Shown: positions 29,413 through 64,000, numbered from the stretch's first letter. The stretch is DNA of 64,000 nt from Candidatus Buchananbacteria bacterium (GCA_013359225.1 JABWCG010000001.1:497627-561626), one strand, 5' to 3'. Numbers and translations: made by a program. The notes: generated by a model not told the origin, from the letters alone.

Positions 29413-31158
29413 TTAATTTAATTGGGAAACTCTCATTACTTCGTCCAGCGTTGTTTCAGCTTTCAGCGCTTTAATCAGGCAATCTTGAGTCAGTGTAATA
29501 AAATTCTGGCTCTTTAACATTTTGTTGATTTCAATAGTATTACCGCCGCGGTTAATGGCTTCTCGAACTTCGGGAGTAATTTCTAAAATTTCTGATACGG
29601 CAGTTCGGCCTTGATAACCAAGATTACCACAACTGGCGCAGCCAGCACCTTTATAAAACACCGGCTTGTCAATATCAATTCCTTCTAACCCTTCTAAATA
29701 TTTCTTGGGAATCTGGCTTAACTCACTTTTAACTTTTTTCATCATTAGCTCGGGAACTTTTGTTTCCTGTTTGCAGTTTGGGCACAGCTTTCGCGCCAAT
29801 CGTTGAGCAATAACCACGTTCATGACTGACGACAACAAAAATGGTTCAGCGCCTAAGTCGATTAATCGGGGAATTGCACCAACTGAATTGTTAGTATGCA
29901 GCGTTGAAAGCATTAAGTGTCCGGTTAAGCTCGCATGAATAACTAATTCTGTTGTTTCCTTGTCTCTAATTTCTCCCAACATCACCACATTGGGATCTTG
30001 ACGCAAAATTGCCCGCAAACCAGAAGCGAAGGTATAATTGATTTCCTGATTAATCTGTGACTGGTTAACTCCATCAACATAATACTCAATCGGGTCTTCG
30101 AGCGTCACAATATTTATTCCGTCTTTGTTAATCATGGTCAAGATGGTATATAACGTCGTTGTTTTACCAGAACCAGTCGGACCAGTAAGCAGCAGCAAGC
30201 CGTTTGGTTTTTTAATCGCCTCTTTTATGGTTTCAATATGAATACTATTAAAACCAAGCTGATCTAAAGAAGGAATTTGGGCATTTGAATCCAAAATACG
30301 CAAAACAACTTTTTCGCCTTCAAATAACGGCAAAGTTGAAACACGAAAATCAATATCGCGGCCTTCAATATTCAACCGAATCCGGCCATCCTGAGGTTTT
30401 CGGGTTTCATCCAATTTTAAATTTGCCAACACTTTAATGCGCGCCACAATCGCCGAATGAATATATTTTGGTAAAACCAAAGAAGTTCGCAAGATACCGT
30501 CAATACGGTAGCGGACTTTCGTGTCTTTTGTGGTTGGCTCAATGTGAATGTCTGAAGCCCGGCCATCAATCGCGTGGCGAACAATTACTAAAACCATTTT
30601 AGAAACCGGCGCACTCTTAATAACCTCTTCCATCTCCTTCAAAGATTCCTCCGCGGTCTTTTCAACCACTTGTTGCTGTTCATTAATTCCGGCCAAAGCT
30701 TGTTTTACCTCTTCGCCCAACGCCTGATATTGCCGCAAACCTAAGCGAAAACTGGTTGGTGAAATGATGAAATATCTAATTTTTAATCCAGCCTTCTGAG
30801 CTAAAAATTCAACTGCTTCAATCGCTTTAAAATTTTGAGGGTTCACCAAACCAACTCGCAACTCCGACCCTTCTTTTTCAAAGGGTATCATTTGATAGTT
30901 TTCAGCAACCTCCTTAGGAATCAAATTCAAAACTTTTTTGTCAATCGTTTTATTTTGAAAATCGGCAACTGGCGTATTTAAAATTTTTGATTTGGTCGCC
31001 AACAGCTCTTTGTCGGTAATCAATCGTTCCTCAATAATAAGTTCTTCGGGAGTTTTTCGAACTTCCGAAGATTTTTTAAGCAAATCGTCAGCCGCCTGCC
31101 GAGTCAACAGATTACCGGCGACCAATGCTTCAACAAGTTGGGATTGATTTCTTAACAT
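29413..31158 (-). CDS. pilB: Type IV pilus assembly ATPase (GspE family).
   Basis: Walker A LLLTGPTGSGKTTTLY, a tetracysteine CPNC...CASC and N-terminal T2SE_N domains. Length is 581 aa. Confidence 0.9.
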   Translation of the reverse strand: MLRNQSQLVEALVAGNLLTRQAADDLLKKSSEVRKTPEELIIEERLITDKELLATKSKILNTPVADFQNKTIDKKVLNLIPKEVAENYQMIPFEKEGSELRVGLVNPQNFKAIEAVEFLAQKAGLKIRYFIISPTSFRLGLRQYQALGEEVKQALAGINEQQQVVEKTAEESLKEMEEVIKSAPVSKMVLVIVRHAIDGRASDIHIEPTTKDTKVRYRIDGILRTSLVLPKYIHSAIVARIKVLANLKLDETRKPQDGRIRLNIEGRDIDFRVSTLPLFEGEKVVLRILDSNAQIPSLDQLGFNSIHIETIKEAIKKPNGLLLLTGPTGSGKTTTLYTILTMINKDGINIVTLEDPIEYYVDGVNQSQINQEINYTFASGLRAILRQDPNVVMLGEIRDKETTELVIHASLTGHLMLSTLHTNNSVGAIPRLIDLGAEPFLLSSVMNVVIAQRLARKLCPNCKQETKVPELMMKKVKSELSQIPKKYLEGLEGIDIDKPVFYKGAGCASCGNLGYQGRTAVSEILEITPEVREAINRGGNTIEINKMLKSQNFITLTQDCLIKALKAETTLDEVMRVSQLN

Positions 31159-31166
31159 TTAAAAAA

Positions 31167-31478: not shown

Positions 31479-31484
31479 AGGTTT

Positions 31485-32102: not shown

Positions 32103-32105
32103 AAA

Positions 32106-33356: not shown

Positions 33357-33359
33357 ATA

Positions 33360-34544
33360 TTATTCAATATCGCGCATTGCTAAACCAATGGCAACTGAAA
33401 ATCGTGGGCCAATTTCATCAAGCACCGGCTTTAATTCTTCCGGATAAATTACCCGTGCCCACGGATCACCCAAAAACACTCTCAGGCCCAAGGAGCTGGA
33501 CAGGTATTCGGGCAAATTAAGCAACAATGACGACCCGCCGGTCAAAACTATTTTTTCAATATTTTTTTGTCCTTGGTTTTTATACAGATTCAAACTATAC
33601 CTGAGCTCATCAATAATCGGCGTTAAGGTTTGTTCAATCGTTTTAGGAACGCTTCCCTGTCCCTTACGATCCGGACTCATGCCAATATCATATTTAAACT
33701 GTTCCGCCCGGCTCAAGCTGACATTTAAACTGTTTGCAATCGCTTTGGTAATCGTCAAACCGCCAACATCAATACTGCGATTCAAAATTGGAATACTATT
33801 AACCACAACTGAAATGTTAGTTACCACCGAACCAATGTCAACCACCATCAGGGCCGATTTATCGTTTCCAACCAACGACCTGATTAAAGCAAATGATTCC
33901 GTATCAAGGCTTAATAAATTCAAACCACTGCCCTTAAAAATATCAATGTAGCGCTTCACCAAATCTTTAGGCGCCGCTGTCAAAAGTATTTTAGTGTATT
34001 TTTTCGGGGTCGTGCTTTTAATTTTCAAAAAACCCTTAGTTCGCAATTCACCAACAGAATCGAGATTATCAGAACCATTACCGTTTTGATTTTTAGCGTC
34101 AGTGACCTGATCACCGTCGAAATCTTCCAAAATTTTCCAGTCTAAAATCATTTCCTCGATTGGTAACGGAATGACCTTTTTTGCCTCCCACTTAACCGCC
34201 GTAGCCAAATCTTTTTTTGCCATCCCTGGCAGATTCAAAATTGAAGAAAAAACCGAATAGGCCGGCAACGAAGTCACCGCTTTTGTTGTCGTCACCTGAG
34301 CCTGAGAATACACCTGTTTAATCAGTTTTGAAGTTTCATTCTTCGAATCGCCGCCTTCCTTGTTCTCGGACTTGTCAATTTCCCGATCAATAAACCCATA
34401 GGTAACCAGGCGTGGACGGCCACCTTCATTTTTTAGTTCTACTATTTTGATGCTGTTCGTATCTACATCAACACCTAAATAACTTTGTGAAGAAGAAAAT
34501 AATCCCATAGTTACGTTTATCTGGAAAATGTTTCTGATCGCCAA
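33360..34544 (-). CDS. pilM: Type IV pilus assembly ATPase-fold protein PilM.
   Basis: Actin-like fold segments LGVDVDTNSIKIVEL and VVDIGSVVTNISVV. Alternative start ATG 34508 would avoid overlap with the upstream gene. Confidence 0.75.
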   Translation of the reverse strand: MAIRNIFQINVTMGLFSSSQSYLGVDVDTNSIKIVELKNEGGRPRLVTYGFIDREIDKSENKEGGDSKNETSKLIKQVYSQAQVTTTKAVTSLPAYSVFSSILNLPGMAKKDLATAVKWEAKKVIPLPIEEMILDWKILEDFDGDQVTDAKNQNGNGSDNLDSVGELRTKGFLKIKSTTPKKYTKILLTAAPKDLVKRYIDIFKGSGLNLLSLDTESFALIRSLVGNDKSALMVVDIGSVVTNISVVVNSIPILNRSIDVGGLTITKAIANSLNVSLSRAEQFKYDIGMSPDRKGQGSVPKTIEQTLTPIIDELRYSLNLYKNQGQKNIEKIVLTGGSSLLLNLPEYLSSSLGLRVFLGDPWARVIYPEELKPVLDEIGPRFSVAIGLAMRDIE

Positions 34545-36979: not shown

Positions 36980-36991
36980 AAATCTTTTTGA

Positions 36992-37951: not shown

Positions 37952-37983
37952 TATAAAACCTTAGATTATTTTTAATCTTGGCT

Positions 37984-40900
37984 TTATTTAGTGCCCTTTA
38001 ACTCATCTAGCTGGACTTGCAGTTTCACAATCTGTTCTTGCTGTTCTTTGATAGCATTTAACATAGCGTAAATAATTGAATTCTGATTTAGCCCGAGATA
38101 CCCCTTGTCGTCGTACGAAACCGCTTCGGGAATTATTGGCTCAACGTCCTGAGCAATCAAACCAACCTGCTGTTTAGTTGAAAGGTTATACGGGTTACCA
38201 GCCTTGAAACTAAAGACCACCGGATTTAAAGCTAACACTTCATCAAGACCATACTGGTATCGGCCGGCAATATTTTTCAACCGAGCGTCTGATTTCGGAT
38301 CAGTACCTTCGCAGATACCCGAAATATTACAGGTTTCGTCAGTGGCACAAGTACCGCAAGTACCACCACAACCATTATCACCACATTCTTTGCCGGAACA
38401 ATTTGGTGTACAGGCTGAAACAATACCGCCAGACCAGCTGGTTTTACATTCGCCGTTAGCAAAACAAAGTTTATCAACGTACACACCACGACCGCCCGTA
38501 AAGTACCCTGAGTATCCCGTGGAATTGGTAACTGATCCCTGGACACCAATACCGTTAGGCGTAGCCGAAAAACCAAAGACACCAACACCATAACCGCCGG
38601 TACCACCGACGTTTTGAGCCAAGGAGCCCCAGACTGAGTCTCCCACGCCAGCTACGCTATCTTGAGTATTATTAGTACCGACCACCGCTTCAGTGCTCTG
38701 CCCAGAAATCGCTGTACGTAATCGAACAGCTGCATGAGTAGCAGTGCCAATACCAACACTACCATCTTTATCAATTTCCATTCTAACCTGTGGCGGCACC
38801 GCGCCAGTCGCGCCGGTTCGCGGTTGAGTAAAGAATCTAATTTTACTGCCGCCGCTAGAAGAATTAGTATAGCGCCCAGACACAAAATCAACCACGCCAT
38901 AATTGGCATCACTAGTATTCCAATAAGTGTTAACCAATAAACCGTCATATTCACCAGAATTAGGATAAGTCTTTTCACCAGCATTAGCACCGCTGTAAAT
39001 ATGAAGTTCGGCGTTAGGGGTAGCGGTATGGATACCGACATTGCCAACGTTCGCATTATAGATATTGTTACCCGAAGTTACCCAGGTAGGCTTATTGAAC
39101 AAAATGGCGTTAATGATCATCTGAACATCTACCGCATTAACACTGCCGTCACGATTAAGATCAGACCTTGAACGGTAAATTGTGGTACAGCTGGCAACAC
39201 CAAGCGTACAATTAACCACGATTGTTTGATCTGCCTCATCTACCTTACCGTCAGCATTAACATCATAACCTAAACCGCCCGGAGTTGAACTGCCACCGGC
39301 AGCACCAATACAATTGCCACTGCCGTCACAGATTGTTCCGTTTGCTTTAATGTTGCCGGCTACGTGTAATTTGTTCCCTGAGGTATTAGTTGGCACTATA
39401 CCAAGACCAACATTGCCGTTCGTTGATATTAAGAAGAAATTCTGCCAACCAGCTTGGGCCGTAGTCAAGTTATCTTGGCGATAAATTCTAAACAACTTAT
39501 TGTAATTTGAGCTACTTGGGTAATAATAGTTATCCATCACCCAAACGTCTGAAGTCAGCGGATTACTTGGACCATTACCTAAAGTCATGCGAGCTCCATC
39601 AAGACCACTGGCTAATATCTGCCCATCAACATGAAGATCAGACACCGGGTTAGTTACGCCAATACCGGTATTGCCATTAGGATTGATATTAAAGGCCTCA
39701 ACATGAGAACCATTTGCCGCCCCGGTGTAATAGTTAATCCGAAACGCATTATCAAGCGTGACACCAGCATCATCCTTACCACTTCGGTGCCAAATGCCCC
39801 AATATTGATTACCAGTACCCCAACCGATACCGTTATCCCACAAACGAATACCGGAATAAGCGTATGGCGGACGATTGGCATAGGTAGTGCCGCTATAGGT
39901 GTCAAGCGCATTGCCGTTCACCGCATTAATAGTTAATCCGTTATTACCGCTATCCATGACCGTACCGTCATTCCAGTTTCCGCCGGAAGTGTTAATTCCG
40001 ATTCGACCGTCATTTTTAATAACAAGTGGAGTTTTTCTGCCGGTATTCGCATTAGCCCCAGCTGCCGCGTCAGGTACCACGCTAAACATCCAGTCTCCCC
40101 ATTCTTTCATTTCAATTGTTCCCGAAGGGCCGCGTCTGGTTTTTTTCATCGTATCAGTTGCCGCGTCATAATATTCATTCACCCGAAAACCGCCACCAAA
40201 AATAGCACCATAACTAGAACGATTGGAATTGTTAAGTTCTGCCACGGTTGATGGAAACGCAAGGCTTTCGTTATAATAGGCTTCAATTTCCGCCTGGCCG
40301 CCACCCGTTGTCGGGTTTGATCTAAAGAAAGTAGTGCCGGCCACATCAAGTCGCGCTTGAGGGTTGGTTACACCGATACCCACAAAACCAAACTTATTGT
40401 TGTCAGCGGTGTTAATCCAAATACCCTGCCCGCCCGGATAGGTTGGGTTGGCGACAACTAAAGCAAATTTCTCATTGATATCTGAAAAACGGCTGTTCGG
40501 ACCAACATTACCGACAATACCCGAAGCATTTTGTCCCAATAACTCAATACGAGAAATTTTATCCGGACCTTCGTCAATTAATATCTGCGGCACGCCCGAA
40601 CTTCTAAATGGCCTGGTAGCCGACATTGCTGCCGGTAGCCCTGCGCTTTGCAGCTGGGCAACAGTCAGGCCGCACTGGGTAATCCCGGCGGAAGTTAGAC
40701 AAAGGTCGGTGTGAGCGTCAATCGTACCGCGGGCGCTTAGCCTGTTTAAAGCAATTTCACCGTTGGTAATAGCAAACGTATTACTGTCAGACAGGGTCGT
40801 TAATGCCTTGTCTTGAGAGAGTTTAATACCAATTGAATCAGCTCCTGTTACATTCATTCGTCCTAAATATGTCGCTGAACCAGCACCGGTACCGGGAACA

Positions 40901-41688
40901 AACACTCCACCCTCACCAATACAATTGCCAGTGCCGTCACAAATTGTTCCCGAAGCTGTAATATTGCCCGTAACGCTCAATGGCTGATTGGCAACAATTT
41001 GATCTCGCTTTAAGGTCAATACCGCCTGGTCATTACCGCTCGACAAATAATTCAAGTTATTTACAAACACCAACTGGTCGTTGGTATCATCACCCCACTT
41101 AACAATCAATTGATCACCATCGCCGCTTCCAGTACCGCCCTGAGCCACCGTGCCTTCAGCAAAAGACGGATATACTTCAAACCAGTCATTCAAAAAATGA
41201 AACTGCGTTTTGCCGCTGTTATAAACGCGCAAACCAAGATCGTTAGGATCGTCACCACCGTCGTTATAAATCCAACCGCGGCTGTCCTGGCTCCAAAAAC
41301 TGCCACCACCAGTAACACCATCCCAAGAGCTAACACAGCTTGCCGCATCATAAGGCGGTAAACATACCTGGGGAGTTTTGATCGCACCCTGACCGATAAT
41401 TACTTCATTAGAAGTGCCTTCCGCGACAATGACCTGGCTTTCAACCTTAGCCGGACCGGTAATATTAATTTGGGCATTTTGCCGCTGGCTGGAGCTGTTA
41501 AAAATAAACCCGGGAGGGTTACCTTCCGGTGGGTTACCCGGAGGCCCTTGGTATTGAGCCAAAACCACCGCACTGGTAACAAAAAAAGTGACAGCAAACA
41601 CCGTCACCATTACGACCACTGAACTAAACTTTGTTGTTAGTTTAACTTGGTTTTTCATAAATTTACCCACGATTCTCGTTACAAACAC
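37984..41688 (-). CDS. Giant (1234 aa) surface fibre protein with a C-terminal phage tail-fibre-type intramolecular chaperone (peptidase S74) domain and dockerin-like Ca-binding repeats.
   Basis: The N-terminus has a TM anchor. GTICDG(T/S)GNCIG occurs twice. Dockerin/EF-hand-like pairs are DVNADGKVDEAD and DLNRDGSVNAVD. A Cys-rich knot precedes SDARLKNIAGRYQYGLDEVLALNPVVFSFK...VGLIAQDVEPIIPEAV...YLGLNQNSIIYAMLNAIKEQQEQIVKLQ, which matches the S74 autoproteolytic chaperone consensus. Confidence 0.75.
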   Translation of the reverse strand: MFVTRIVGKFMKNQVKLTTKFSSVVVMVTVFAVTFFVTSAVVLAQYQGPPGNPPEGNPPGFIFNSSSQRQNAQINITGPAKVESQVIVAEGTSNEVIIGQGAIKTPQVCLPPYDAASCVSSWDGVTGGGSFWSQDSRGWIYNDGGDDPNDLGLRVYNSGKTQFHFLNDWFEVYPSFAEGTVAQGGTGSGDGDQLIVKWGDDTNDQLVFVNNLNYLSSGNDQAVLTLKRDQIVANQPLSVTGNITASGTICDGTGNCIGEGGVFVPGTGAGSATYLGRMNVTGADSIGIKLSQDKALTTLSDSNTFAITNGEIALNRLSARGTIDAHTDLCLTSAGITQCGLTVAQLQSAGLPAAMSATRPFRSSGVPQILIDEGPDKISRIELLGQNASGIVGNVGPNSRFSDINEKFALVVANPTYPGGQGIWINTADNNKFGFVGIGVTNPQARLDVAGTTFFRSNPTTGGGQAEIEAYYNESLAFPSTVAELNNSNRSSYGAIFGGGFRVNEYYDAATDTMKKTRRGPSGTIEMKEWGDWMFSVVPDAAAGANANTGRKTPLVIKNDGRIGINTSGGNWNDGTVMDSGNNGLTINAVNGNALDTYSGTTYANRPPYAYSGIRLWDNGIGWGTGNQYWGIWHRSGKDDAGVTLDNAFRINYYTGAANGSHVEAFNINPNGNTGIGVTNPVSDLHVDGQILASGLDGARMTLGNGPSNPLTSDVWVMDNYYYPSSSNYNKLFRIYRQDNLTTAQAGWQNFFLISTNGNVGLGIVPTNTSGNKLHVAGNIKANGTICDGSGNCIGAAGGSSTPGGLGYDVNADGKVDEADQTIVVNCTLGVASCTTIYRSRSDLNRDGSVNAVDVQMIINAILFNKPTWVTSGNNIYNANVGNVGIHTATPNAELHIYSGANAGEKTYPNSGEYDGLLVNTYWNTSDANYGVVDFVSGRYTNSSSGGSKIRFFTQPRTGATGAVPPQVRMEIDKDGSVGIGTATHAAVRLRTAISGQSTEAVVGTNNTQDSVAGVGDSVWGSLAQNVGGTGGYGVGVFGFSATPNGIGVQGSVTNSTGYSGYFTGGRGVYVDKLCFANGECKTSWSGGIVSACTPNCSGKECGDNGCGGTCGTCATDETCNISGICEGTDPKSDARLKNIAGRYQYGLDEVLALNPVVFSFKAGNPYNLSTKQQVGLIAQDVEPIIPEAVSYDDKGYLGLNQNSIIYAMLNAIKEQQEQIVKLQVQLDELKGTK

Positions 41689-46843: not shown

Positions 46844-46845
46844 AC

Positions 46846-51622: not shown

Positions 51623-51636
51623 TGTGACAAAACTAA

Positions 51637-51713
51637 TGGCGTCCCCGGCAGGGTTCGAACCTGCGACCTCAAGCTCCGCAAGCTTGCGCTCTATCCAACT
51701 GAGCTACGAGGAC
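51637..51713 (-). tRNA. tRNA-Arg (anticodon GCG; CCA encoded).
   Basis: Minus-strand read GTCCTCGTAGCTCAGTTGGATAGAGCGCAAGCTTGCGGAGCTTGAGGTCGCAGGTTCGAACCCTGCCGGGGACGCCA. The loop TTGCGGA gives the anticodon. Confidence 0.75.
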
Positions 51714-51718
51714 AGAAA

Positions 51719-52222: not shown

Positions 52223-52255
52223 AGTTGGTTAACACGGTGATTACCCCTCACTCAA

Positions 52256-52342
52256 CGGAGAGGGCGGGATTCGAACCCGCGAACCCTTTTTGGGGGTTAA
52301 CACGTTAGCAGTGTGCCGCATTCGACCACTCTGCCACCTCTC
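52256..52342 (-). tRNA. tRNA-Ser (anticodon GCT).
   Basis: Minus-strand read GGAGAGGTGGCAGAGTGGTCGAATGCGGCACACTGCTAACGTG...long variable arm...GGGTTCGAATCCCGCCCTCTCCG. A 7-bp inverted repeat CCCCTCA/TGAGGGG flanks the gene. Confidence 0.85.
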
Positions 52343-52444
52343 CATTGACTGAGGGGCACCGCTAATTTATAAGCAGTGAACCGTATTAATTTCTCCTATA
52401 AAACTATCATAGTATAACACTTCAAAACTGCTCTTGTAAAGTCC

Positions 52445-53110
52445 CTAATTTTTCGCTATAACTAAGGCCCAAACCCTTTTAGCACCGGCCTGTTTAAGCA
52501 CTCTAGAAAGCTCATCAATCGTCGAACCGGTAGTAAGAACGTCGTCAATAACTAATACTCTTTTTCCTTTCACAGCCTGCGCATCAATCAAACTAAAAAC
52601 ATTTTTTATGTTTTGCCTTCTTTCTAGGGCATCGTTTCCGACCTGAGGTTCTCGATTTTTTCTAATCAAAATATTATTTTCAAAGTTAATATCTGCCTGC
52701 CGGGCAACTGTTGCGGCCAACATATCTGCCTGATTAAAGCCCCGAAACAATAAACGTTTTTTCGAAATTGGCATCGGAACGACCAAATCAATTTTGGGCA
52801 ACGCCTGATTGAGAATCAAACGGGTCAGATATTGTTCCAAAATTATTTCAAGACTCAAGCCAAGCTCCCTGACAAATCGGTATTTAAAATGGTAAATGAT
52901 CTTTTGCAACAACGGATCGTTAAAATCGGAAATCACCCAAACTCCGTCGGTATAATCAGTAACAAAATAACTATTGCTAATATCCGGATTAATTTTTATT
53001 TTTTTTAAACAATCACTGCAAACTAATTCATTATCTTTGTTACATCCCAAACATTGCCGGGGAAAAAATAAATCCAAAATCTTTTCTCGTATCAACATAG
53101 CATATACCAA
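52445..53110 (-). CDS. comFC: ComF-family phosphoribosyltransferase-domain protein.
   Basis: N-terminal Cys pairs CLGC...CSDC and the PRTase motif VLVIDDVLTTGSTI. Confidence 0.8.
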   Translation of the reverse strand: MVYAMLIREKILDLFFPRQCLGCNKDNELVCSDCLKKIKINPDISNSYFVTDYTDGVWVISDFNDPLLQKIIYHFKYRFVRELGLSLEIILEQYLTRLILNQALPKIDLVVPMPISKKRLLFRGFNQADMLAATVARQADINFENNILIRKNREPQVGNDALERRQNIKNVFSLIDAQAVKGKRVLVIDDVLTTGSTIDELSRVLKQAGAKRVWALVIAKN

Positions 53111-53134
53111 GCGCTACGTTGATTTTATTACTGT

Positions 53135-53728
53135 TTATTGCCACTCGGCCGCGTCCACTTTCCAAGCACCATCAACTTGAGTCATTGACAACTTTAACTT
53201 TTGATAAAAAGCTCTTGGATTGTCAGTTGAGACAATTGATTCAGACCTCTGTGTTGAAACAATCACTTCCGCACGATTAAAATCCTGATCAAATTCTGAA
53301 ATCTCGGCGGCAATTGCCTTTGTGGTGACACCATAATATTCGGAGTTATCCGCCTGGCGCTGAGAAAGTTTAAAATTCTCCACCCAAGCTTTCATTTTAG
53401 CCGTCATCAAATCCGCTGAGTCATCAAGATTGCTGAAATAAACTTCGTTTGAGTAGCTTCCAAAACGTTCAGCAAAAGTAAAGGCGATAGCTTTCAATTC
53501 TGCCTGGGAATCTTTTTGTTCTTCGGGCACGCCGGTAGTGTCTGGCAAACCAGCCGAAGCAGTCGGTAAAGTCGCTGGAACTTGAATTTCACTTGGGTTT
53601 TGATTAACATTCTGATTTACCGGATTGTTAAGATTGGCTCTGGTAAACCACCACCACAAAAAAGCTGCAATAACTCCGATGATGACAACAGTGATAACTC
53701 CGATGATAATTTTTTTTCTTCTCGTCAT
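53135..53728 (-). CDS. Hypothetical membrane-anchored extracytoplasmic protein.
   Basis: N-terminal TM (IIIGVITVVIIGVIAAFLWWWF) and Asn/Gln-rich spacers. Confidence 0.4.
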   Translation of the reverse strand: MTRRKKIIIGVITVVIIGVIAAFLWWWFTRANLNNPVNQNVNQNPSEIQVPATLPTASAGLPDTTGVPEEQKDSQAELKAIAFTFAERFGSYSNEVYFSNLDDSADLMTAKMKAWVENFKLSQRQADNSEYYGVTTKAIAAEISEFDQDFNRAEVIVSTQRSESIVSTDNPRAFYQKLKLSMTQVDGAWKVDAAEWQ

Positions 53729-53762
53729 ATATTTCTAATTAGCTTCCTAAATATTAGCCCGC

Positions 53763-55655: not shown

Positions 55656-55658
55656 AAG

Positions 55659-56336
55659 TTATTCAACTCGTAATTTGTTTATCTCAACCAATTTTTCCCG
55701 GCTGGAAACATCCGGATTATAGGTATTATAATATAGTTCAATTAAGCTCTGCGTGTCTAACACTACTGCCTTTAAACTCATACTTGATAATCCGGTAATA
55801 ACATGTTCGACTCTCTGAAACAAAGCATGCCGCCGTTTCATAAACTCCGATTGCGTTAACTTGACCTCTTGAGCCGCCGAAAATACACCCAAAAACCGCT
55901 TAAACCAGGATTTCTGTTTATCAGAAATTGGGTCGTAAGGCACAACAACATAAAAACGCTTATTCATAATATCACCAATTTCAACCAGTTCACTGACATA
56001 CTGACGATATTCAGCCGTCTGCATCCGCAGCAATTCATTAGTCTGTTCTTTCTCAATCTTTTTCAAACGATTCAAGTAGCCGTCAATATCAAGTTTACGG
56101 GACTGGATTACAATCTGGAGCGGAAATTCTAGAAAGTTTAAAAACCCGATATACGCGGCAATAATGGCATTTTGTTCTTCTTCCGATTTCAAAGAAAAAT
56201 TAAGGCTCGACACCAGCACCACTGAACGCAAGGTCCCATCTTTAAGAATAACCGTATCCTCCTTGATTTCAGCAATATCAAGATAACCCTGAGCGGATGT
56301 TGTAATCTTTTTATTGGCAAGTTTCTTGGATTTCAT
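55659..56336 (-). CDS. VirB4-family N-terminal domain, encoded as a separate 225-aa ORF.
   Basis: GYLDIAEIKEDTVILKDGTLRSVVLVSSLNFSLKSEEEQNAIIAAYIGFLNFLEFPLQIVIQSRKLDID matches the CagE/TrbE/VirB N-domain pattern. It ends E-TAA-L-ATG, in-frame with the ATPase ORF. Confidence 0.55.
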   Translation of the reverse strand: MKSKKLANKKITTSAQGYLDIAEIKEDTVILKDGTLRSVVLVSSLNFSLKSEEEQNAIIAAYIGFLNFLEFPLQIVIQSRKLDIDGYLNRLKKIEKEQTNELLRMQTAEYRQYVSELVEIGDIMNKRFYVVVPYDPISDKQKSWFKRFLGVFSAAQEVKLTQSEFMKRRHALFQRVEHVITGLSSMSLKAVVLDTQSLIELYYNTYNPDVSSREKLVEINKLRVE

Positions 56337-56347
56337 AAATAGATTAA

Positions 56348-56806
56348 TTAAACAAGTTGCTGCAAACTACTTGGAGGTTCTTTTTCACCCTGATACACTC
56401 CGCCAGTGTCAACAATGAGCGCCATTTCAGCCAGCCGGGAAGCCCGAACCCGGTTTTTGGTTCTAATCTCCGGTGGCAGTGGCAAGGTCTCTTTCTTATT
56501 ATACCTTTTTAACTCTGAATTGGTAAAAGTTTTCTGCCAAACCCTAATCTTCGGCCTCTTAGAGGTCTGTAAAACATTTAAAATAAAATAATGGACCGGC
56601 CGACCGTTGATTTTAATAAAGGCAACGCCAAAAGTCAGAACAGAAATGACTACAAATAAAAAAAGAAAAAGGCTGAAATCAGACAATTTATAGGCGACAA
56701 AATCAAGTCCCGCGCCAACCAGCACAATAATAAACTGCCTGACCGTTACCGGGCCAATAATTTTATCTTCAACATCAATAAATTGTGGAACGACGAACTG
56801 TTGCAT
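56348..56806 (-). CDS. PrgI/VirB3-like small T4SS membrane protein.
   Basis: 152 aa beginning QQFVVPQFIDVEDKIIGPVTVRQFIIVLVGAGL, followed by a TM pair. It sits immediately upstream of the VirB4 genes. Confidence 0.5.
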   Translation of the reverse strand: MQQFVVPQFIDVEDKIIGPVTVRQFIIVLVGAGLDFVAYKLSDFSLFLFLFVVISVLTFGVAFIKINGRPVHYFILNVLQTSKRPKIRVWQKTFTNSELKRYNKKETLPLPPEIRTKNRVRASRLAEMALIVDTGGVYQGEKEPPSSLQQLV

Positions 56807-57931
56807 TTAATAGCGTAGTCTTTTATTTAAGTCAAAAATTGCTTCAAGCTCTTCTTCAGTTAAAGTCGGCAGGCCTTGTTGTGTGCGCTCGGCGATAACT
56901 TCCGAAACCGGCTTATGTTCTTCCATGCTTTGATCACCTAAAGAAAGGTACAGCCGGTTAACCTCGCTTTCCTTCCAAGCTTTGATGGCCTCAACCTTCT
57001 TAGGGAAGGATTCATCTTCTAATAAAGCAACTTTATCAAGTATCTTTTGAACTGCCATACTTGGTGTTGGTGACAAGCGCCTGAAGTCTTTGAGCGTCAT
57101 GGTTCGAATTTCCTCAATCGGACCAGTCAGCTTAGGTTTAAATTTAACATCTTCAATTTTTGGCTTTGACCCGATGGCACTAACTACCGGTCGACTCATC
57201 ACCGGTGCATCTGCTATCTGTGTTGGCGCCGGACTAATAGGTGGTTGTGCTGGTGTTGGTGGCGTTAAATCAGCAGGCATTTCCGGTTTAAAAAGGGGCT
57301 TAGCCTCAATAGGTTGCACCTCTTTAATAATTGGCTCTGCTAAAATTTTTTTTGCTTCTTCCTGGAGTTCCAAAAACTGATCAGTACTGATATTTTGTCG
57401 ATGACGATGGTCAAAATCCTGCAATTCCCGGCTAATTGCCGCCAAAATTTTATTAATCGTTTCAGTATCAAAAGCCGTTCCTTCGGTTAATCGAAATTCC
57501 TGCAGCGATTCCTTTGTTTGAAGGTGATTTCTAATTCCCCGCAAACGGGAACTCACAATACTACGAAATTTTTTCTCATCTTCCGGCGAAGTAAAATGTA
57601 ACTCCGCATTCTTAATTACCGAGCTAATTTCTTCTTCCAACCTCAATGGTTCACCAAACGATCGAGTTGGCTGAACCGGTGCTACAGCTTCTTCTACCTC
57701 AGGTTCAATGGTTAGCGGTTTACTCGCCACCGACGATTGGGACGTAGAATTTGTAAGCCCTTGACCAACTGGCTGCTCGTAATCCAAAACTTGGTCACCT
57801 CGCAAAATCTTCAAGTTTCCCTGCTCATCCTTAAAAATAATTTCATCATCAGGCACCGCTGCCTTAGCCTTCTGCTCTTGTTCAATCAGGCTGAAAAAAT
57901 CATCTGTTTTTTGAGTCAAATTCTGGACCAT
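56807..57931 (-). CDS. Hypothetical Pro-rich protein.
   Basis: 374 aa with a PADLTPPTPAQPPISPAPTQ linker. It abuts the PrgI-like gene. Confidence 0.4.
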   Translation of the reverse strand: MVQNLTQKTDDFFSLIEQEQKAKAAVPDDEIIFKDEQGNLKILRGDQVLDYEQPVGQGLTNSTSQSSVASKPLTIEPEVEEAVAPVQPTRSFGEPLRLEEEISSVIKNAELHFTSPEDEKKFRSIVSSRLRGIRNHLQTKESLQEFRLTEGTAFDTETINKILAAISRELQDFDHRHRQNISTDQFLELQEEAKKILAEPIIKEVQPIEAKPLFKPEMPADLTPPTPAQPPISPAPTQIADAPVMSRPVVSAIGSKPKIEDVKFKPKLTGPIEEIRTMTLKDFRRLSPTPSMAVQKILDKVALLEDESFPKKVEAIKAWKESEVNRLYLSLGDQSMEEHKPVSEVIAERTQQGLPTLTEEELEAIFDLNKRLRY

Positions 57932-57949
57932 TATCGAAAGATAATTTAA

Positions 57950-59128
57950 TTATAATCCCGCCTGTTTTCGTAATGTGGCGGCCATATCAGTTTTTTCCCA
58001 AGTAAAATCAGGGTCAATTCTACCAAAATGACCATAGGCGGCAGTCTTTTTGTAGATTGGTCGTAGCAGGTTTAACGTCTTAATAATGCCCGCGGGCGTC
58101 AAATCGAAGTTTTTGCGTACTAAATTAGTTATCTTTTCATTACTAATTTTACCCGTACCAAAGGTGTCAACTAAAATGCTGATTGGCTCGGCAACGCCAA
58201 TGACATAAGCAACCTGAAGTTCGCATCGGTCTGCTAAGCCGGCGGCGACGATATTTTTTGCGACATATCGAGCCATGTATGAAGCGGAGCGATCAACTTT
58301 TGATGGGTCTTTGCCGGAAAAAGCGCCGCCACCGTGTGAACCATGGCCACCATAGGTGTCCACAATAATTTTACGTCCGGTCAAACCGGCATCAGCCGGC
58401 GGACCACACTTAATAAAGCGACCCGTAGCATTAACAAAAAATCTCGTCTTACTGTCAATATATTTTTTAGCAACCGGTTTAATAACTTTATTAAGGATAT
58501 CGCGTTCAACTTTTGCCTCATTAACATCTTCATTATGACTGGCCGCCACCACAATTGTGTCAATTCTTTTTGGTTTACCATCAACATATTCAACCGCCAC
58601 TTCAGCCTTACCGTCAGGACGTAGATACGGCAACACTTTTGTTTTTCTTAATTTTGCCAGTTGATGAGTAATTCGATGAGCCATAATAATTGGTAATGGC
58701 ATTAATTCCGGAGTGTCTTTACAGGCATATCCGAACATCAAGCCCTGGTCTCCAGCACCTTGCTTTTTGTATTTACCTCTACCAGCGTCAACCCCTTGGG
58801 CAATGTCAGGACTTTGCTCATCAATTGCAACCATAACGCCGCAGTCTTCCCAATGAAAACCAATCGCATGATCATCATACCCAATGCCCTTGATTGTTTG
58901 TCGAACAACGCTGGCAATATCAACATATCCCTTGGTTCTAATTTCTCCAGCTACCACCACCAAACCGGTAGTTGCTAAAGTTTCCACTCCGGCCCGAGAA
59001 TTTTTATCCTGCCGAAGCAATTCGTCTAAAATTGCATCCGAAATCTGGTCACATACTTTGTCCGGATGACCTTCGGTCACTGACTCAGAACTAAATATGT
59101 AACGATTCTGTTTTTTGGTCTCTTTCAT
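57950..59128 (-). CDS. metK: S-adenosylmethionine synthetase.
   Basis: [18 protein letters not shown] and [19 protein letters not shown] motifs. Confidence 0.9.
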
Positions 59129-59165
59129 GGTTTTTCCTTTTAACCCCCAACTTAGTATTTAAATT

Positions 59166-60542
59166 TTATTCAAACCAATTAAAGGTTTTTGAATTAACAT
59201 CAAAATATGCCATTTTATTATAACTTTTTTTACCCAAACTGACAAAAATATTCCCGATTTTCTGGCCAACCCTCGCCGCTTCGTTCGCCGGCATGTTCAA
59301 GCGCTGCTCTAAAATATAGCGCAAAAAGGTCCGGATAAACTTGGGCTGAGCCGGAGTAGTCTTGAATTCCAAAGCAAAATCGGCGCCATACTGTTTTTCC
59401 CAAGTCACCAACAAAAATTTATTTAATTTCTCATCTTCAACAACAAACTTTTCCAAATCATCGGCCTGCGCCAAAATTCGTAACAAGGCAACCGTTCTAA
59501 TGATATTTTTATTTTGCACGGCAACCATAAATTCTGATCTTAGCTGTTGATTGTTATCACCAATCTTTTTAGAAATCTTTTCCATTTCCTTATCAATAGC
59601 AGAAGCCATTTTGACGTCACCACGATACGCCGCAACAATTTCTTCTTGGACTTGAGTAGTCTGAACAGTTGAATTTTCTACGACGACCGGATTAACATCA
59701 GTGGGGTTCGTATCAATTGCCGGACCAGCACTTTCTGACGGTAGAATAAAATCATTTTCTGAAATTGTTTTGATTTTTTCCGGCAATGGGCTCTTGCGAC
59801 CAGTATTAGTATTAGTCAAATTAATAATAGTTCCGTTTTCAATAGCCTTAATTTGTCCGTCGGCATCAATAAATACCAAATCATTCTCAACTCCTTCCGG
59901 TGTCATCGAAGAGGTTGTTAGGCGAAATAACAGCTTAAGCAAATTCTTTACTTTTAACCTATCTGCTTCAGACATTTTCAAATAATTTTTATTCTTCATG
60001 GTGTATTCAGCAAAATCAAGGTCGGTTGCCCTCACCCCTTTATTTTTGAAATAATCTGTAATTATATTGGCAACGGTCGCGGATTTTTCTTCGCCGTCAA
60101 CAACAATTTTTTGGTTGCTAATCAATTCTGTGTTATCACGCAGATGGTTTAAAAGTCTTTGTTTGAATTTATCCCGATCGGTAATTGGCAACTGAATCAA
60201 AAAAGCATTTAATCGGTCAAATAATCCAATATCGTCATCGGCTAAAACTTTAGCAATATCTTTTTCAAATAATGAGGTAACCACATTGTCCGACCAGCGC
60301 GGCAAAGATGTGAACTTTAACCTCACATTAGCCAGATTCAGCCGGTCAATATTGCGGGGAGAAATTTTTTCATAGTTTTTGGCCTGGAGCTCATCAATAA
60401 TCTTACTTAATTTGTAGGACTGTAAAATTTCCAAATCAAAAACTAACTGCTGAGACAAGCCTTCAATTTGGTCAACCAGCTGATTCGGATTTTCACCGCT
60501 GGCAACCGACTGTGCAATTGTTTTTAATTCTGTTTCGTACAT
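59166..60542 (-). CDS. Hypothetical soluble protein.
   Basis: 458 aa with no recognised motifs. It lies in the same tight gene string. Confidence 0.4.
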   Translation of the reverse strand: MYETELKTIAQSVASGENPNQLVDQIEGLSQQLVFDLEILQSYKLSKIIDELQAKNYEKISPRNIDRLNLANVRLKFTSLPRWSDNVVTSLFEKDIAKVLADDDIGLFDRLNAFLIQLPITDRDKFKQRLLNHLRDNTELISNQKIVVDGEEKSATVANIITDYFKNKGVRATDLDFAEYTMKNKNYLKMSEADRLKVKNLLKLLFRLTTSSMTPEGVENDLVFIDADGQIKAIENGTIINLTNTNTGRKSPLPEKIKTISENDFILPSESAGPAIDTNPTDVNPVVVENSTVQTTQVQEEIVAAYRGDVKMASAIDKEMEKISKKIGDNNQQLRSEFMVAVQNKNIIRTVALLRILAQADDLEKFVVEDEKLNKFLLVTWEKQYGADFALEFKTTPAQPKFIRTFLRYILEQRLNMPANEAARVGQKIGNIFVSLGKKSYNKMAYFDVNSKTFNWFE

Positions 60543-60564
60543 TTGCTTTTAATTTCCAAAAAGA

Positions 60565-63500
60565 TTAAAGCTCTCTTGGCCCCGAGGGCGGATTTTTTTT
60601 GCCTTGACTGCGATACAACGCCCTAATTCCGTTATTAATTGAGGTTAATAAACCAGAAGTGCTGGTCGGGTCAAGCGTACCGCCTTGTCTGGCACGACCG
60701 AGTTCGCCGAGCGCCTGGGCAATCTGAGTTTTTGCGTTTTGGTTAACCTGATTCTGCGGTAACTTAGCAAGCGATGACTGCATTGAAGTTAAAACATTTT
60801 CAATGTCAGACAACGCCTGAACAACCTCTGTTGAGTCAAAACTTCCTTTCAAAGCCTCCTGAACTTCTTCCGTCCTTTGAGCAACTTCTTCTTGGGCGGC
60901 TTTCACATATTCTTGAGGATTAACTCGCGAAGCCGCAGCTTCTTGAGCCGCCGGAGACGTTTCCCGAGCCGCCTGACGAACGGCCGAACGAGCTGCCGCG
61001 CTTGGAACGCCGCGAATTGAATCAACCATTTCTTTTGCCCGCAAGGTATCAGAGGCGGCCTTGGCGTATTCATCAGCCGCTTTCTTTAATCGTTCACGAG
61101 CGCTGCTAATTTCTGTATCAATATAGTCGTTGCGCTGCAATTCCTGATTACCTTCATTAGTCAAACGTTTTGCTTCGCCCACATTACCGGCCGCTTCCGC
61201 CTGTTTTGCCCGATCGAATAGGGCTTTGGCCGAGGCTTCACGTTGCCGTTTTTCTGATTCCCGTTCCCGAATATATGATTCTTCGCTGGTTTTAACCGTA
61301 TCATACTGGGATCGTGCACCACGCAAAGTTGAACGTGACGAACGATAAGTCTGCAAAGCGTCAAGCTCTTCCTGTTTCATTGCGCCCTCTAAAACTTCGT
61401 CCACTTTACCGGCAACCTGACCGGCCCGAGTCTTGATTGCTGAAGCAACGGTTCCCACCCCGGCGCCAACCTTGTCAAAACCTTTACCAACCTTGCTACC
61501 AAAAGCTCTTGCGGCGGAAGCGGCTTCACTCATCTTTTCAACACTCGCCTCACCACGAGACTTAATACCCATACCCTCTAATACTGCTCGAGTCTTGTTA
61601 TTCATTGCATACACACCCTTGCCAACACCAGCCATTTCAGCCACTGCTTCACGCTTCAAATCTTGATTACTAATACCATAGCCATACCGCTTGCGCAAAT
61701 CAGCTTGAATATCGCGCCGCTGGCTGGCATTTAATGAATTCCAATATTCATCAAGCTGTTGATCCGACATACCCATTGTCGAAGCATGAGCTTCTTCGTG
61801 GCGCTTAATATCTTCGTGCTGGTCAGTACTGCTGGTGTTAAATACTCTAAGGGTTTTGGCACGGCCGAGGCCTTCACGAACCCGATTAACAGCGTTATCA
61901 ATTCCTTCGTCAGTCATATTGAGCCTACCTTCTTCTCTTCTGCTTAAGAGCTGTTTACGATAAACTTCGGCAATTTTACTAATTGTTAAAAATTTACTAG
62001 CTTCATCATAATAAGCACCACTCATACCCTCTTCAACTCCCAAGGCTGCACGAACTTCTTCATTATCAAAATTAAGTCCTACGCCTGCTTGTAACGCACC
62101 TTCCTCAACTTCCGCCGGCAAAACAATTTTATCTCTATCTCGCTTATTTAAGACATAATCGCGCCACCGGAAATCTTTTTCAGCTTCAAATTGTTCCGGA
62201 TTAAAGTCAGCACTTTCAAAAAAGTTAAGTCCGGCATCCTGGTAACGGTCAACCATTTCACGCGTCCGGTCATGCTTAGTGCGGTCAAAGTCCTGCGCCA
62301 TACGAGGTGCTGACGGTACAGCACCAACAGCCGGAGTCGGAGTCGGCTCCGGAGCAATTCCCGGAATATAGGTATTAGTTCTAATGTCGTTAATAATATT
62401 GTCGTACGCCACCTGGCCAATCTGGGCGGATTTCTTTTGTGCAATTTCAGCAGCCAGATTATTGGCAAATGTTTCAATACCACCATTCTTTTTGATATAC
62501 TCTACTTCATTTGGTCTATCAACACCATTTCGGCCGCCATATTTAAAGCCAATTGTGGCATATGCCAAACCTCTGATGTTATTAGCCAGCATAGTATTAC
62601 CTGACTGTTCAGCCACCCGAGCTGTTTCTAACATCACGTCCACGTTTTCATATAACCGATCTTTGATTTCGTTAGACGCCATGTGAAATTCCGCCACCAT
62701 AGCTTTCGGGTTACGCTCCAGGTTAATCATGGCAAATTCCGACATACCAGCACCCATCGTATGAGTTTTATTTGGATCCTTAATATCATGCGGCCGCACC
62801 TCTTCCAAAAATCCTTGCCAAGTAGCAGTTTGGATGAATCTACGTCCCTCTTTCTTAGCCGCATATTTCTCTGCAATATCCTGCTGCTCCAGATAGCGGC
62901 CTTTGTCTTTAGTCATTAATTCAAATTTGCCGTTTTGAATATTCTTATTGCCCATTTTATACAAAAAGCCATCTTTGTTTGCAAAACCAACTTCACCCAA
63001 GTCAAACGCCACCTCTGCTTGAAATTCTTCGCCATAATCTTTAAACATATGGCGAACCGCTTCCTGAACATTATGTGTTGTATATTTAATGTTGCCATTA
63101 GAATCTCGATCCAGTTTTCGGGCTTGTTTTTCGGCATCGGTCAGTCCGGCTAATCGGACGTCGTCATTTGTATAATTATCGCCAAAAACATCCTGAGCCT
63201 GTAAAACAATTTCGTTAGCATTGTGGTCAGCCGTTAACTGCCGCAATTTAGCAATGGCATACACTTCACGGCCGGCCTTAACTTTGCCGGTTTTATCCAA
63301 GTCTTCATTCCGTAATTTATTCAAAACTTCTTCGGCGTCAGTTGTGGTGTCGGCTAATAGCCGCTGTTCGGCTGCAACCTCTCCGGCCCGTGCCCGTCGC
63401 GTGGCATTAGTCGGATTTTGATTAAACGGAATTGTACGGTTAAATACGTCCGTTAACGCCTGAGTACCAAGCCGCATGCGTTCACCTTCAACTCGCTGCC

Positions 63501-64000
63501 CTCGGGCCTGCCATGCTGCCGGAATCGAGCGTAAACGTAATCCGCCTTCCCGACCCAACTGGTCAAACCCTCTTTTCCGGCCCCAGGAAGTCTCACCAAT
63601 TCTTCTAAACAACGGCGCATTAACTTTAGCAAATAAATCATCGGCTCGTTTACCTGTCCAACGAAGCGCTGTAGCCTGGCCGGGGATAAATTTGCCTCGT
63701 CTGATATTTGAAAAAGCCGCTCCCGCAAAACTGCCGCCAGCCGTACCCATTTGTTGGGCAATTACCAACCCCGCCATCAGCATACCAATACCGATAATTA
63801 AAGATAATAATTTATTAACGTCGCCAATGCCGCTAAAAATCGCCGTACTGCCGGTGCCGCTGTTTGATTGAGTAAACTCATTAACTAAATCGGCTCCAGT
63901 CCCCGTTAATCCGGACTCTGCGCCGGCCGTCACTGAAGTGCCATCCAAAGGTATATCAACAGAGACTTGTCCTTGTTCCACCACGGCAAAAGATAACCAC
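60565..64000 (-). CDS. Very large (more than 1139 aa) membrane-anchored coiled-coil protein with an HEEAH motif; the 5' end runs off the window.
   Basis: The ORF is open to the window end, so the track start is not a real ATG. One N-terminal TM (LLSLIIGIGMLMAGLVIA) is followed by a long charged alpha-helical region containing IKRHEEAHASTMGM. Confidence 0.45.
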   Translation of the reverse strand, partial: WLSFAVVEQGQVSVDIPLDGTSVTAGAESGLTGTGADLVNEFTQSNSGTGSTAIFSGIGDVNKLLSLIIGIGMLMAGLVIAQQMGTAGGSFAGAAFSNIRRGKFIPGQATALRWTGKRADDLFAKVNAPLFRRIGETSWGRKRGFDQLGREGGLRLRSIPAAWQARGQRVEGERMRLGTQALTDVFNRTIPFNQNPTNATRRARAGEVAAEQRLLADTTTDAEEVLNKLRNEDLDKTGKVKAGREVYAIAKLRQLTADHNANEIVLQAQDVFGDNYTNDDVRLAGLTDAEKQARKLDRDSNGNIKYTTHNVQEAVRHMFKDYGEEFQAEVAFDLGEVGFANKDGFLYKMGNKNIQNGKFELMTKDKGRYLEQQDIAEKYAAKKEGRRFIQTATWQGFLEEVRPHDIKDPNKTHTMGAGMSEFAMINLERNPKAMVAEFHMASNEIKDRLYENVDVMLETARVAEQSGNTMLANNIRGLAYATIGFKYGGRNGVDRPNEVEYIKKNGGIETFANNLAAEIAQKKSAQIGQVAYDNIINDIRTNTYIPGIAPEPTPTPAVGAVPSAPRMAQDFDRTKHDRTREMVDRYQDAGLNFFESADFNPEQFEAEKDFRWRDYVLNKRDRDKIVLPAEVEEGALQAGVGLNFDNEEVRAALGVEEGMSGAYYDEASKFLTISKIAEVYRKQLLSRREEGRLNMTDEGIDNAVNRVREGLGRAKTLRVFNTSSTDQHEDIKRHEEAHASTMGMSDQQLDEYWNSLNASQRRDIQADLRKRYGYGISNQDLKREAVAEMAGVGKGVYAMNNKTRAVLEGMGIKSRGEASVEKMSEAASAARAFGSKVGKGFDKVGAGVGTVASAIKTRAGQVAGKVDEVLEGAMKQEELDALQTYRSSRSTLRGARSQYDTVKTSEESYIRERESEKRQREASAKALFDRAKQAEAAGNVGEAKRLTNEGNQELQRNDYIDTEISSARERLKKAADEYAKAASDTLRAKEMVDSIRGVPSAAARSAVRQAARETSPAAQEAAASRVNPQEYVKAAQEEVAQRTEEVQEALKGSFDSTEVVQALSDIENVLTSMQSSLAKLPQNQVNQNAKTQIAQALGELGRARQGGTLDPTSTSGLLTSINNGIRALYRSQGKKNPPSGPREL

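Follow-up and report, generated by a model that had tools for sequence, protein, structure and literature searches.

A probable core chromosomal type IV secretion locus with an extended VirB6-like protein in a Candidatus Buchananbacteria genome

We analyzed a 64,000-nucleotide (nt) stretch of the genome of a Candidatus Buchananbacteria bacterium (GCA_013359225.1, JABWCG010000001.1:497627-561626; hereafter the window), focusing on a string of genes at its end that resembles a type IV secretion system (T4SS). Very probably, this is a core chromosomal, non-conjugative and vertically inherited T4SS locus of the class ABY1 of the ultrasmall Patescibacteria (CPR), derived from the mating-pair formation type FATA (MPF-FATA) and comprising a minimal, monoderm-type set of an extended VirB6, a VirB3, a TrsD plus VirB4 pair and a VirB8-like protein. 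We consider it a chromosomal, non-conjugative T4SS because its PrgI and VirB4 proteins match hidden Markov models (HMMs) of these families, it lies among core genes, its gene order is conserved, and no relaxase, VirD4 or integrase turned up. The same evidence supports the proposal of an initial annotation, made from the sequence alone, that the module is such a system for host interaction or DNA uptake and not a mobile element. The class of locus was already described in 2025 and is ordinary for the lineage; we recognize the present locus as a case of it because its parts and its comF/recG/radA neighbourhood match that description (Quinonero-Coronel et al. 2025, Microb Genom, PMC12102498). New with respect to the initial annotation are three identifications made from sequence: the giant first protein is VirB6, a protein of 197 amino acids (aa) is VirB8/PrgL-like, and the split of VirB4 is ancient.

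The genes form a single tight string on the minus strand, 11.6 kb long, at the window's end (52445-64000). In their order on that strand they encode the VirB6-like giant, a 458-aa protein, MetK, a 374-aa protein, PrgI/VirB3, a 225-aa TrsD-like protein, a 630-aa VirB4, the 197-aa protein and ComFC. The genes reported before, from the giant to the split VirB4, all lie where the initial annotation had placed them on this strand. From the giant to ComFC the gaps measure 22, 37, 18, 0, 11, 3, 34 and 24 nt, a range of 0-37 nt that corrects the 18-37 nt given previously. Because the gaps are this short and no terminator-like site was found between the genes on the minus strand, we treat the string as an operon. 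ComFC is a ComF-family phosphoribosyltransferase-like competence protein (TIGR00201 comF, E 3.7e-32, below the cut-off of the model). It had been noted 0.6 kb downstream of VirB4, and the distance is indeed 652 nt, but this interval is occupied by the gene encoding the 197-aa protein. The related loci referred to below come from a scan of one genome per GTDB species with a VirB6-like profile, which gave 80 loci.

HMM searches uphold the PrgI and VirB4 homology that had been suggested for this locus. PrgI matches PF12666 at 37.4 bits (cut-off 27; E 3.9e-9), has a hydrophobic hairpin at positions 16-68, and is present in 55-58 related loci. The 630-aa VirB4 scores 355.7 bits against the CD1110 family model (NF045971; cut-off 325), also has a P-loop_TraG match, and retains intact Walker A (ATSGAGKS) and Walker B (VLIIDEAW) motifs. 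The 225-aa open reading frame (ORF) before it matches the NCBIfam models VirB4_plasma (positions 92-234, E 5e-10) and TrsD (E 3e-5), without reaching the cut-off of either, and its orthologue in the related locus L081 has a match to the TraC-like family PF26593.

In the window, the two VirB4 ORFs share a frame and are spaced by a TAA stop, one codon and then an ATG. VirB4 is likewise encoded by two ORFs in every related locus that reaches this point (54/54), with no fused example, and among the relatives the two ORFs occur in all three relative frames with spacings of -47 to +509 nt. Because the split recurs in all of these loci with varying frames and gaps, it is, as judged from these comparisons, an ancient two-gene TrsD plus VirB4 arrangement of the lineage and not damage. 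The "split VirB4" first described is thus confirmed as two ORFs, but it represents the normal arrangement (PMC12102498). An alternative genetic code or programmed readthrough was also considered and rejected, as the stop is TAA, the other ORFs are intact and the relatives' ORFs lie in all three frames. VirB4 is 68-89% identical to its orthologues across 55 loci (median over all loci, 76%). Within the clade of the window the identity is 82-89%, compared with 61-82% for metK, which points to strong purifying selection on VirB4. In a neighbour-joining tree built without outgroups, the window VirB4 nests among 55 Patescibacteria loci.

The part of the giant that lies in the window is 100% identical to P0001, a 1447-aa protein annotated as hypothetical (Candidatus Buchananbacteria bacterium HUU49_02920). 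Its first ~303 aa are off-window; together with the first ~85 in-window residues, they comprise a signal peptide and ~7 hydrophobic segments. For the N-terminal 407 aa of P0001, the sole family found is Pfam TrbL (18.9 bits, E 0.0014). Its orthologues P0002, P0005 and the protein of locus L007, which are 47-55% identical to it in the N-terminal domain, pass the TrbL cut-off with 26.5-27.4 bits, and precomputed TrbL/TrbL_3 matches are on record for the relative L081. Based on these matches of the full-length protein and its orthologues, the giant is a VirB6/TrbL-like channel subunit, an "extended VirB6" whose predicted polytopic domain lies just past the window edge. The earlier statement that no VirB6 is identifiable was therefore wrong in substance, the giant itself being this subunit. 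A comparison of the VirB6-like profile with PrgH of pCF10 (probability 1.8%) was discarded as unsupported, and the VirB6 call stands on Pfam TrbL.

According to a hydropathy scan, the last transmembrane helix of this domain (63745..63819) is the only hydrophobic segment of the giant within the window. In 11 of 11 homologues this helix is preceded by an acidic loop (K+R 0-5, D+E 3-8) and followed by 40 aa of basic character (K+R 5-7, D+E 0-2), so that the VirB6 tail would be cytoplasmic by the positive-inside rule. The tail is 1060 aa long, contains no cysteine, and ends in a coiled-coil-like charged region. This region is otherwise variable among homologues of the giant, up to the last ~40 residues (…GGxLDPxSxxGLLxxINxNLxxI…; ~60565-60700, minus strand), which are conserved and also found in P0002 and P0093-P0101. 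This C-terminal stretch may be a docking motif.

The gene encoding the 197-aa protein is directly downstream of VirB4, the same slot that prgL occupies in pCF10, and its product has one N-terminal transmembrane segment (residues 3-31). A profile of the family (36 sequences) aligned with the C-terminal domain of pCF10 PrgL in hhalign at a probability of 84% (E 7.7e-6), while none of the remaining 14 pCF10 transfer proteins, which served as controls, exceeded 1.2%. In a PDB profile search with the same family, the PrgL structure 7aed was listed with an E value of 1.7, which is not significant. Moderate evidence thus identifies this protein as VirB8/PrgL-like.

All 80 related loci belong to Patescibacteria, including Buchanan-, Falkow-, Uhr-, Kerfeld- and Kuenenbacteria, as well as binned metagenome-assembled genomes (MAGs) with placeholder names. 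Many of the contigs that bear the locus (L005, L009, L012 and others) are titled "uncultured Gammaproteobacteria bacterium"; they derive from binchicken co-assembly MAGs, and the titles are apparently placeholders. Wherever the contigs reach, the order VirB6-like, 458, (metK), 374, PrgI, TrsD, VirB4, 197, (ComFC) recurs on one strand, and it is common to dozens of species of the class ABY1 from several candidate phyla. ComFC follows the 197-aa gene in 19-20 of the ~46 loci that extend far enough.

Downstream of ComFC in the window are a tRNA-Ser (~100 nt away), a DUF5673 gene, a tRNA-Arg and RecG, with RadA, ClpC, HtpX and LemA beyond; recG and radA are both within 5 kb of comFC. The relative L081 reproduces the flank of ComFC, DUF5673, RecG and RadA. 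In L081 a gene for a 90-aa GIY-YIG protein (L081:15622-15894) stands between ComFC and the DUF5673 gene, where the window has none. The flank is identical apart from this gene, which looks like a small mobile insertion. The remainder of the window encodes RpoD, DnaG, a P-type ATPase, GatA, LigA, glycosyltransferases and type IV pilus genes, and its GC content is even and unremarkable throughout. Synteny had been named in the initial annotation as a way to tell a core from an accessory module, and since module and flanks are syntenic across many species, the module is core.

Two kinds of gene were seen directly upstream of the VirB6-like gene in relatives. The first, on the same strand, encodes a protein of 2000-3300+ aa with a signal peptide, a high cysteine content (~3%) and domains of the CBM_4_9 type of carbohydrate-binding module (CBM). 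It is present in about half of the related loci (L001:3-9968, L007:116-9724, L034:762-7364 and 35 more) and is a candidate adhesin or substrate of the system. The second, in loci from outside the Buchananbacteria (L034:9152-9862, L021:9097-9810 and 38 more), encodes a protein of ~230 aa with a long polar N-terminus, two C-terminal hydrophobic helices and no Pfam match, and is preceded by tRNA synthetase genes. This protein could be the VirB2-like pilin reported for Patescibacteria.

Our domain scan covered 34 of the 54 window ORFs of at least 120 aa, and upstream neighbours were sampled from three relatives. No relaxase, type IV coupling protein (T4CP; VirD4) or integrase was found in these ORFs or neighbours, in agreement with what had been stated for the window; oriT was not searched for.

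These features agree with what has been described for the lineage. VirB4 was detected in 2,417 of 3,035 Patescibacteria genomes, and nearly all of these proteins form one monophyletic clade nested in MPF-FATA (PMC12102498). The most abundant T4SS component in Patescibacteria is TrsD, a remote homologue of the VirB4 N-terminus; PrgI/VirB3 and VirB6 also occur near virB4, and relaxases are almost absent (PMC12102498). VirB8-like proteins are almost confined to the class ABY1, in which T4SS loci "commonly include" comF, recG and radA, a co-location read as functional coordination (PMC12102498). In Table S1 of this survey, Buchananbacteria are entered under ABY1 with VirB4, among them the genome from which our locus L004 comes (PMC12102498).

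Several points weigh against our interpretation of the locus. The VirB6 call on this exact protein is sub-threshold (18.9 bits compared with a Pfam cut-off of 25.9), and the PrgL-like call depends on a single profile comparison with a probability of 84%. No VirB1-like hydrolase or VirB2-like pilin is visible in the window. Because the VirB6 gene runs past the window edge, it is from the relatives that we take the absence of a relaxase or T4CP upstream of 64000, and the genome may have a T4CP gene at another place, as is common in Patescibacteria (PMC12102498). In addition, comEC-dependent competence is separable from T4SS essentiality in Southlakia epibionticum, which weakens the reading of this machine as one for DNA uptake. 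In that organism the T4SS is essential independently of ComEC-mediated competence, and competence needs type IV pili and ComEC (2025 review, PMC12857230).

Table 1. Features of the T4SS locus in the window (coordinates counted from the first nucleotide of the window).
Feature	Coordinates	Strand	Basis or remark
Extended VirB6/TrbL-like giant, C-terminal 1144 aa	60565..>64000	-	Start off-window; 1447 aa in full
Last transmembrane helix of VirB6-like domain	63745..63819	-	Hydropathy scan; translation VNKLLSLIIGIGMLMAGLVIAQQMG
HExxH-bearing conserved domain of VirB6 tail	61564..62091	-	phmmer and alignment
HEEAH motif	61786..61800	-	Translation
458-aa conserved soluble protein, locus-specific	59166..60542	-	Homologues in related loci; no family match
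Promoter-like site TTGTCA-17-TATAAT	59217..59245	-	11/12 consensus match only
metK, S-adenosylmethionine synthetase	57950..59128	-	Three Pfam domains
374-aa conserved soluble protein	56807..57931	-	Directly upstream of PrgI; Pro-rich linker; no family match
PrgI/VirB3-like membrane protein	56348..56806	-	PF12666
TrsD-like, VirB4 N-terminal domain as separate 225-aa gene	55659..56336	-	NCBIfam VirB4_plasma, TrsD
VirB4 ATPase, catalytic C-terminal part, 630 aa	53763..55655	-	NF045971; Walker motifs
VirB8/PrgL-like bitopic membrane protein, 197 aa	53135..53728	-	Profile comparison with pCF10 PrgL
ComFC, final gene of the string	52445..53110	-	TIGR00201 comF; Pribosyltran and double zinc ribbon

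Two soluble proteins accompany the recognizable T4SS components (Table 1). The 458-aa protein has no transmembrane segment and no match among Pfam, NCBIfam or PDB sequence profiles. Relatives of it, found by direct sequence search, are encoded just downstream of the VirB6-like gene in ~50 related loci. For the 374-aa protein, we also found no transmembrane segment, family match or PDB sequence-profile match. Its family has 60 database homologues, all unnamed or "hypothetical", as are those of the 458-aa family, and it is encoded directly before PrgI in 58 related loci. Neither protein matched any of 15 pCF10 transfer proteins. Structure prediction, suggested earlier as a way to identify them, gave confident models but no known fold. 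The AlphaFold2 (AF2) model of the 458-aa protein (predicted local distance difference test score, pLDDT, 85) has two helical domains joined by a disordered linker (245-295), with the C-terminal domain very well predicted, and found no Foldseek match in PDB or among viral models. The model of the 374-aa protein (pLDDT 77) has helical domains at 98-198 and, C-terminally, at 271-372 (pLDDT ~96), with disordered Pro-rich sequence (200-270) between them, plus a small beta unit; Foldseek found no matching fold in PDB.

Paralogy of the two proteins was considered, as single-linkage clustering and iterated profiles merged them, but strict profiles gave an hhalign probability of 0.3% and BLASTP an E value of 0.44. 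We treat them as separate families that, on sequence, would share at most a short beta motif. Because of their location and the absence of export signals, they may, with low confidence, be cytoplasmic accessory subunits of the machine.

The metK gene encodes all three S-AdoMet synthetase Pfam domains (E 1e-43 to 1e-68). A metK inside a T4SS string had been called unusual, which holds in general; in this clade, however, it is a fixed feature, as 17 related loci have metK at this position and all members of the VirB4 clade to which the window belongs are among them. The 3' end of the 458-aa gene contains a promoter-like site (59217..59245), ~90 nt before the metK ATG, which may be an internal promoter. 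It is the joint-best sigma-70-like match in 51600-64000 (11/12, tied with one other), in a region where the overall count of such matches is not above that of shuffled controls. No S-adenosylmethionine (SAM) riboswitch or other RNA element was found at metK, with Rfam detecting only the five tRNAs of the window. We found nothing in favour of a functional tie between metK and the T4SS, and metK is probably a housekeeping passenger, long fixed in an operon that a compact genome uses constitutively.

The identity and anatomy of the locus can be read from its genes; its substrate and direction of transport we infer. The predicted machine would be a minimal cytoplasmic-membrane translocon made up of a VirB6-like channel, PrgI/VirB3, a VirB4 ATPase with its TrsD-like domain, and the VirB8/PrgL-like protein. 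The 458-aa and 374-aa proteins and the VirB6 tail would most likely be cytoplasmic accessory parts, and may take the place of the coupling protein, which the locus lacks. By analogy to Southlakia epibionticum, the machine probably moves macromolecules across a contact with a host cell. We slightly favour uptake of host nucleic acid that is handed on to ComFC over export of proteins or pilins, because the string ends in comFC and recG and radA are close by, but hold this tentatively and give it somewhat less than an even chance.

The same machine could also work outward, as a pilus or adhesive structure or for export of effectors to the host, in which case ComFC, RecG and RadA would be neighbours by compaction only. 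We take this as a serious, if minority, possibility. The T4SS of S. epibionticum, which lacks a recognisable relaxase or coupling protein, "may instead export proteins", and its essential cluster includes pilin genes (PMC10633639). A 2026 preprint describes tubular structures at the parasite-host interface that are possibly T4SS pili. The giant secreted, Cys-rich CBM protein directly upstream in about half of the loci has a place that fits an adhesin or substrate, and ComFC follows the string in less than half of the loci counted above. Against an outward function, the part of the locus within the window shows no gene for a pilin, adhesin or hydrolase, comFC is just 24 nt from the VirB8-like gene on the same strand in this clade, and the 2025 survey reads the co-location of comF, recG and radA as functional coordination (PMC12102498).

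The VirB6 tail of the putative translocon carries a further conserved feature. Its HEEAH motif is the sole HExxH in the 1447-aa giant, where 0.005 occurrences would be expected from composition. Searching 1.84 billion representatives with the surrounding domain (176 residues) using phmmer returned only 14 clusters. In the full-length proteins of these clusters (1007-1583 aa), the domain is found ~635-1150 residues into the sequence; another three are fragments of lesser length. Every representative that spans the site (13/13) retains HExxH, even at identities as low as 26%. In an alignment of 11 sequences, the positions without variation are the H, E and H of the motif, an Asn located 12 residues before it and a Glu 45 residues past the second His. 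This N...HExxH...E arrangement is a gluzincin-like ligand pattern. We regard the motif as a real, selected site in a clade-specific domain, and not as an established metallopeptidase. Where the initial annotation saw a lone HEEAH in a low-complexity helical giant, the motif is indeed the only HExxH, but it sits in a small conserved domain, and a peptidase nature is not supported.

It seems unlikely, accordingly to our weighing of these sequences, that this domain makes the VirB6 tail an active zinc metallopeptidase acting on a T4SS substrate or a part of the machine, so that the giant would be an enzyme-channel fusion and not a scaffold. The retention of HExxH with its invariant Asn and Glu and the low chance expectation of the motif would favour such an enzyme. 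However, the domain has no significant match to a peptidase family or a solved zincin in Pfam, NCBIfam or PDB, the best being Peptidase_M78 at E 0.1 for one member, and the close homologue P0002 carries HGMGH instead. A PDB profile search with the domain listed annexin repeats only (annexin XII, whole-sequence E 8e-4; per-repeat E of at least 15), a weak resemblance that hints at an all-helical domain. Most VirB6-like proteins of the wider family are also without the domain, which is confined to one subclade; because of this, it would be dispensable for the core function.

Two further observations concern this domain. An assignment as an annexin-like repeat was tried and set aside as a faint lead, with an hhalign probability of 7% over 35 columns against annexin A5. 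In the homologue P0104, the segment downstream of the HExxH motif is repeated twice.

A more specific scheme, which we consider a long shot, would join the VirB6 tail with its N...HExxH...E site and the 458-aa and 374-aa proteins into a lineage-specific cytoplasmic platform that replaces the coupling protein. The HExxH domain would then act on the cargo, either as a zincin-like enzyme of a new kind or as a switch that depends on metal, and the machine would import host nucleic acid to the co-transcribed ComFC.

That the locus is instead a decayed integrative and conjugative element beside the tRNA-Ser, which lost its relaxase, T4CP and integrase and had its VirB4 broken by a stop, is highly improbable: the tRNA-Ser next to comFC, the in-frame TAA in VirB4 and the names of the best-scoring VirB4 models, taken from conjugative elements, would fit such a remnant, but all 54 loci have VirB4 as two ORFs, which between them take all three relative frames and leave the Walker motifs intact, conservation is higher for VirB4 than for metK, the order is common to many species and candidate phyla with the same core-gene flanks in relatives, the GC content is unremarkable, and no integrase, relaxase or T4CP was seen in the scanned window ORFs or the relatives' sampled upstream neighbours.

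Elsewhere in the window, a type IV pilus cluster on the minus strand (25668-41688) includes a PilB-like T2SSE ATPase (29413..31158) and PilM (33360..34544). Beside the pilus genes are unannotated ORFs of 820 aa and 319 aa, followed by a gene encoding a 1234-aa protein with Dockerin_1 and Peptidase_S74 (endosialidase chaperone) domains (37984..41688). Between ClpC and RadA, on the plus strand (45893-48201), there are adjacent ORFs of 316 aa and 451 aa with no Pfam match at E ≤ 0.001. The P-type ATPase ORF (6777-9482) begins with a GTG inside a tRNA-Ser (6770-6861), and its true start must be further downstream.

Few systems have been shown to be indispensable to Patescibacteria living as epibionts, and the T4SS genes are one of them. 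The core chromosomal locus described here is a clean ABY1 example with a readable minimal parts list and no new kind of system, and the tight link to comFC in its clade is one of few genomic hints about the substrate. What remains novel is the conserved HExxH site on the VirB6 tail, the two partner proteins without a known fold, and the fixation of metK in the clade. The main text and two supplementary files of the 2025 survey do not mention metK in the locus, the 458-aa and 374-aa families, the HExxH VirB6 tail or the giant CBM protein of relatives (PMC12102498). We thus flag three conserved unannotated partners: the HExxH VirB6 tail, the 458-aa protein and the 374-aa protein.

Among known systems, Helicobacter pylori ComB and archaeal Ced are T4SS-derived, relaxase-less and tied to competence and recombination, and transformation of H. 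pylori requires a ComF-family protein. ComB is a diderm VirB2-10-type system, unlike the window locus, and the Ced proteins show only a partial match at the level of the P-loop (CedB, E 2e-11 over ~70 residues). We know of no Patescibacteria T4SS for which import has been shown. The giant shares with Rickettsiales RvhB6 and F-plasmid TraG a layout in which a large hydrophilic domain comes after a polytopic VirB6-like one (in TraG, at the N-terminus). The tails themselves do not resemble each other in sequence, and the one described here is predicted to be cytoplasmic, is cysteine-free and has the HExxH domain in one subclade. The role of the extensions of extended VirB6 proteins is not known (review PMC12857230).

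Likeness to Gram-positive conjugation systems is seen in the VirB4, which exceeds the cut-off of the CD1110-family model, and in the gene order, as VirB6 (PrgH), VirB3 (PrgI), VirB4 (PrgJ) and the VirB8-like protein (PrgL) follow each other in pCF10 as they do here. A separate TrsD gene upstream of VirB4 is shared with pGO1 (Trs/Tra type, also pIP501; MPF-FATA). Unlike the Prg/Pcf system of pCF10, the locus has no relaxase, T4CP (PcfC), PrgK-type hydrolase or LPXTG adhesin, and its VirB6 is five times the length of PrgH, with no direct profile similarity to it. It also differs from the Gram-positive plasmids in the two extra soluble proteins and metK between VirB6 and PrgI, and in being core chromosomal and not mobile.

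The only tested member of the Patescibacteria systems is that of Southlakia epibionticum ML1 (Saccharimonadia), which cannot grow epibiotically without its T4SS genes (SEML1_0006-0019) and for whose system protein export or a different role was suggested (Wang et al. 2023, Cell, PMC10633639). Both systems are of the Gram-positive type and have no recognisable relaxase or coupling protein in the cluster. The S. epibionticum cluster has a VirB2-like pilin array, as well as peptidase and lysozyme genes downstream of virB4, none of which are visible here, and it belongs to the Saccharimonadia with other flanking genes, whereas the window locus is of ABY1. Compared with the ABY1 type of the Patescibacteria-clade T4SS, there is no fundamental difference: both are chromosomal, both combine an MPF-FATA-related VirB4 with a separate TrsD, PrgI/VirB3, VirB6 and a VirB8/PrgL-like protein, and both are without a relaxase or T4CP next to virB4 and have comF, recG and radA nearby.

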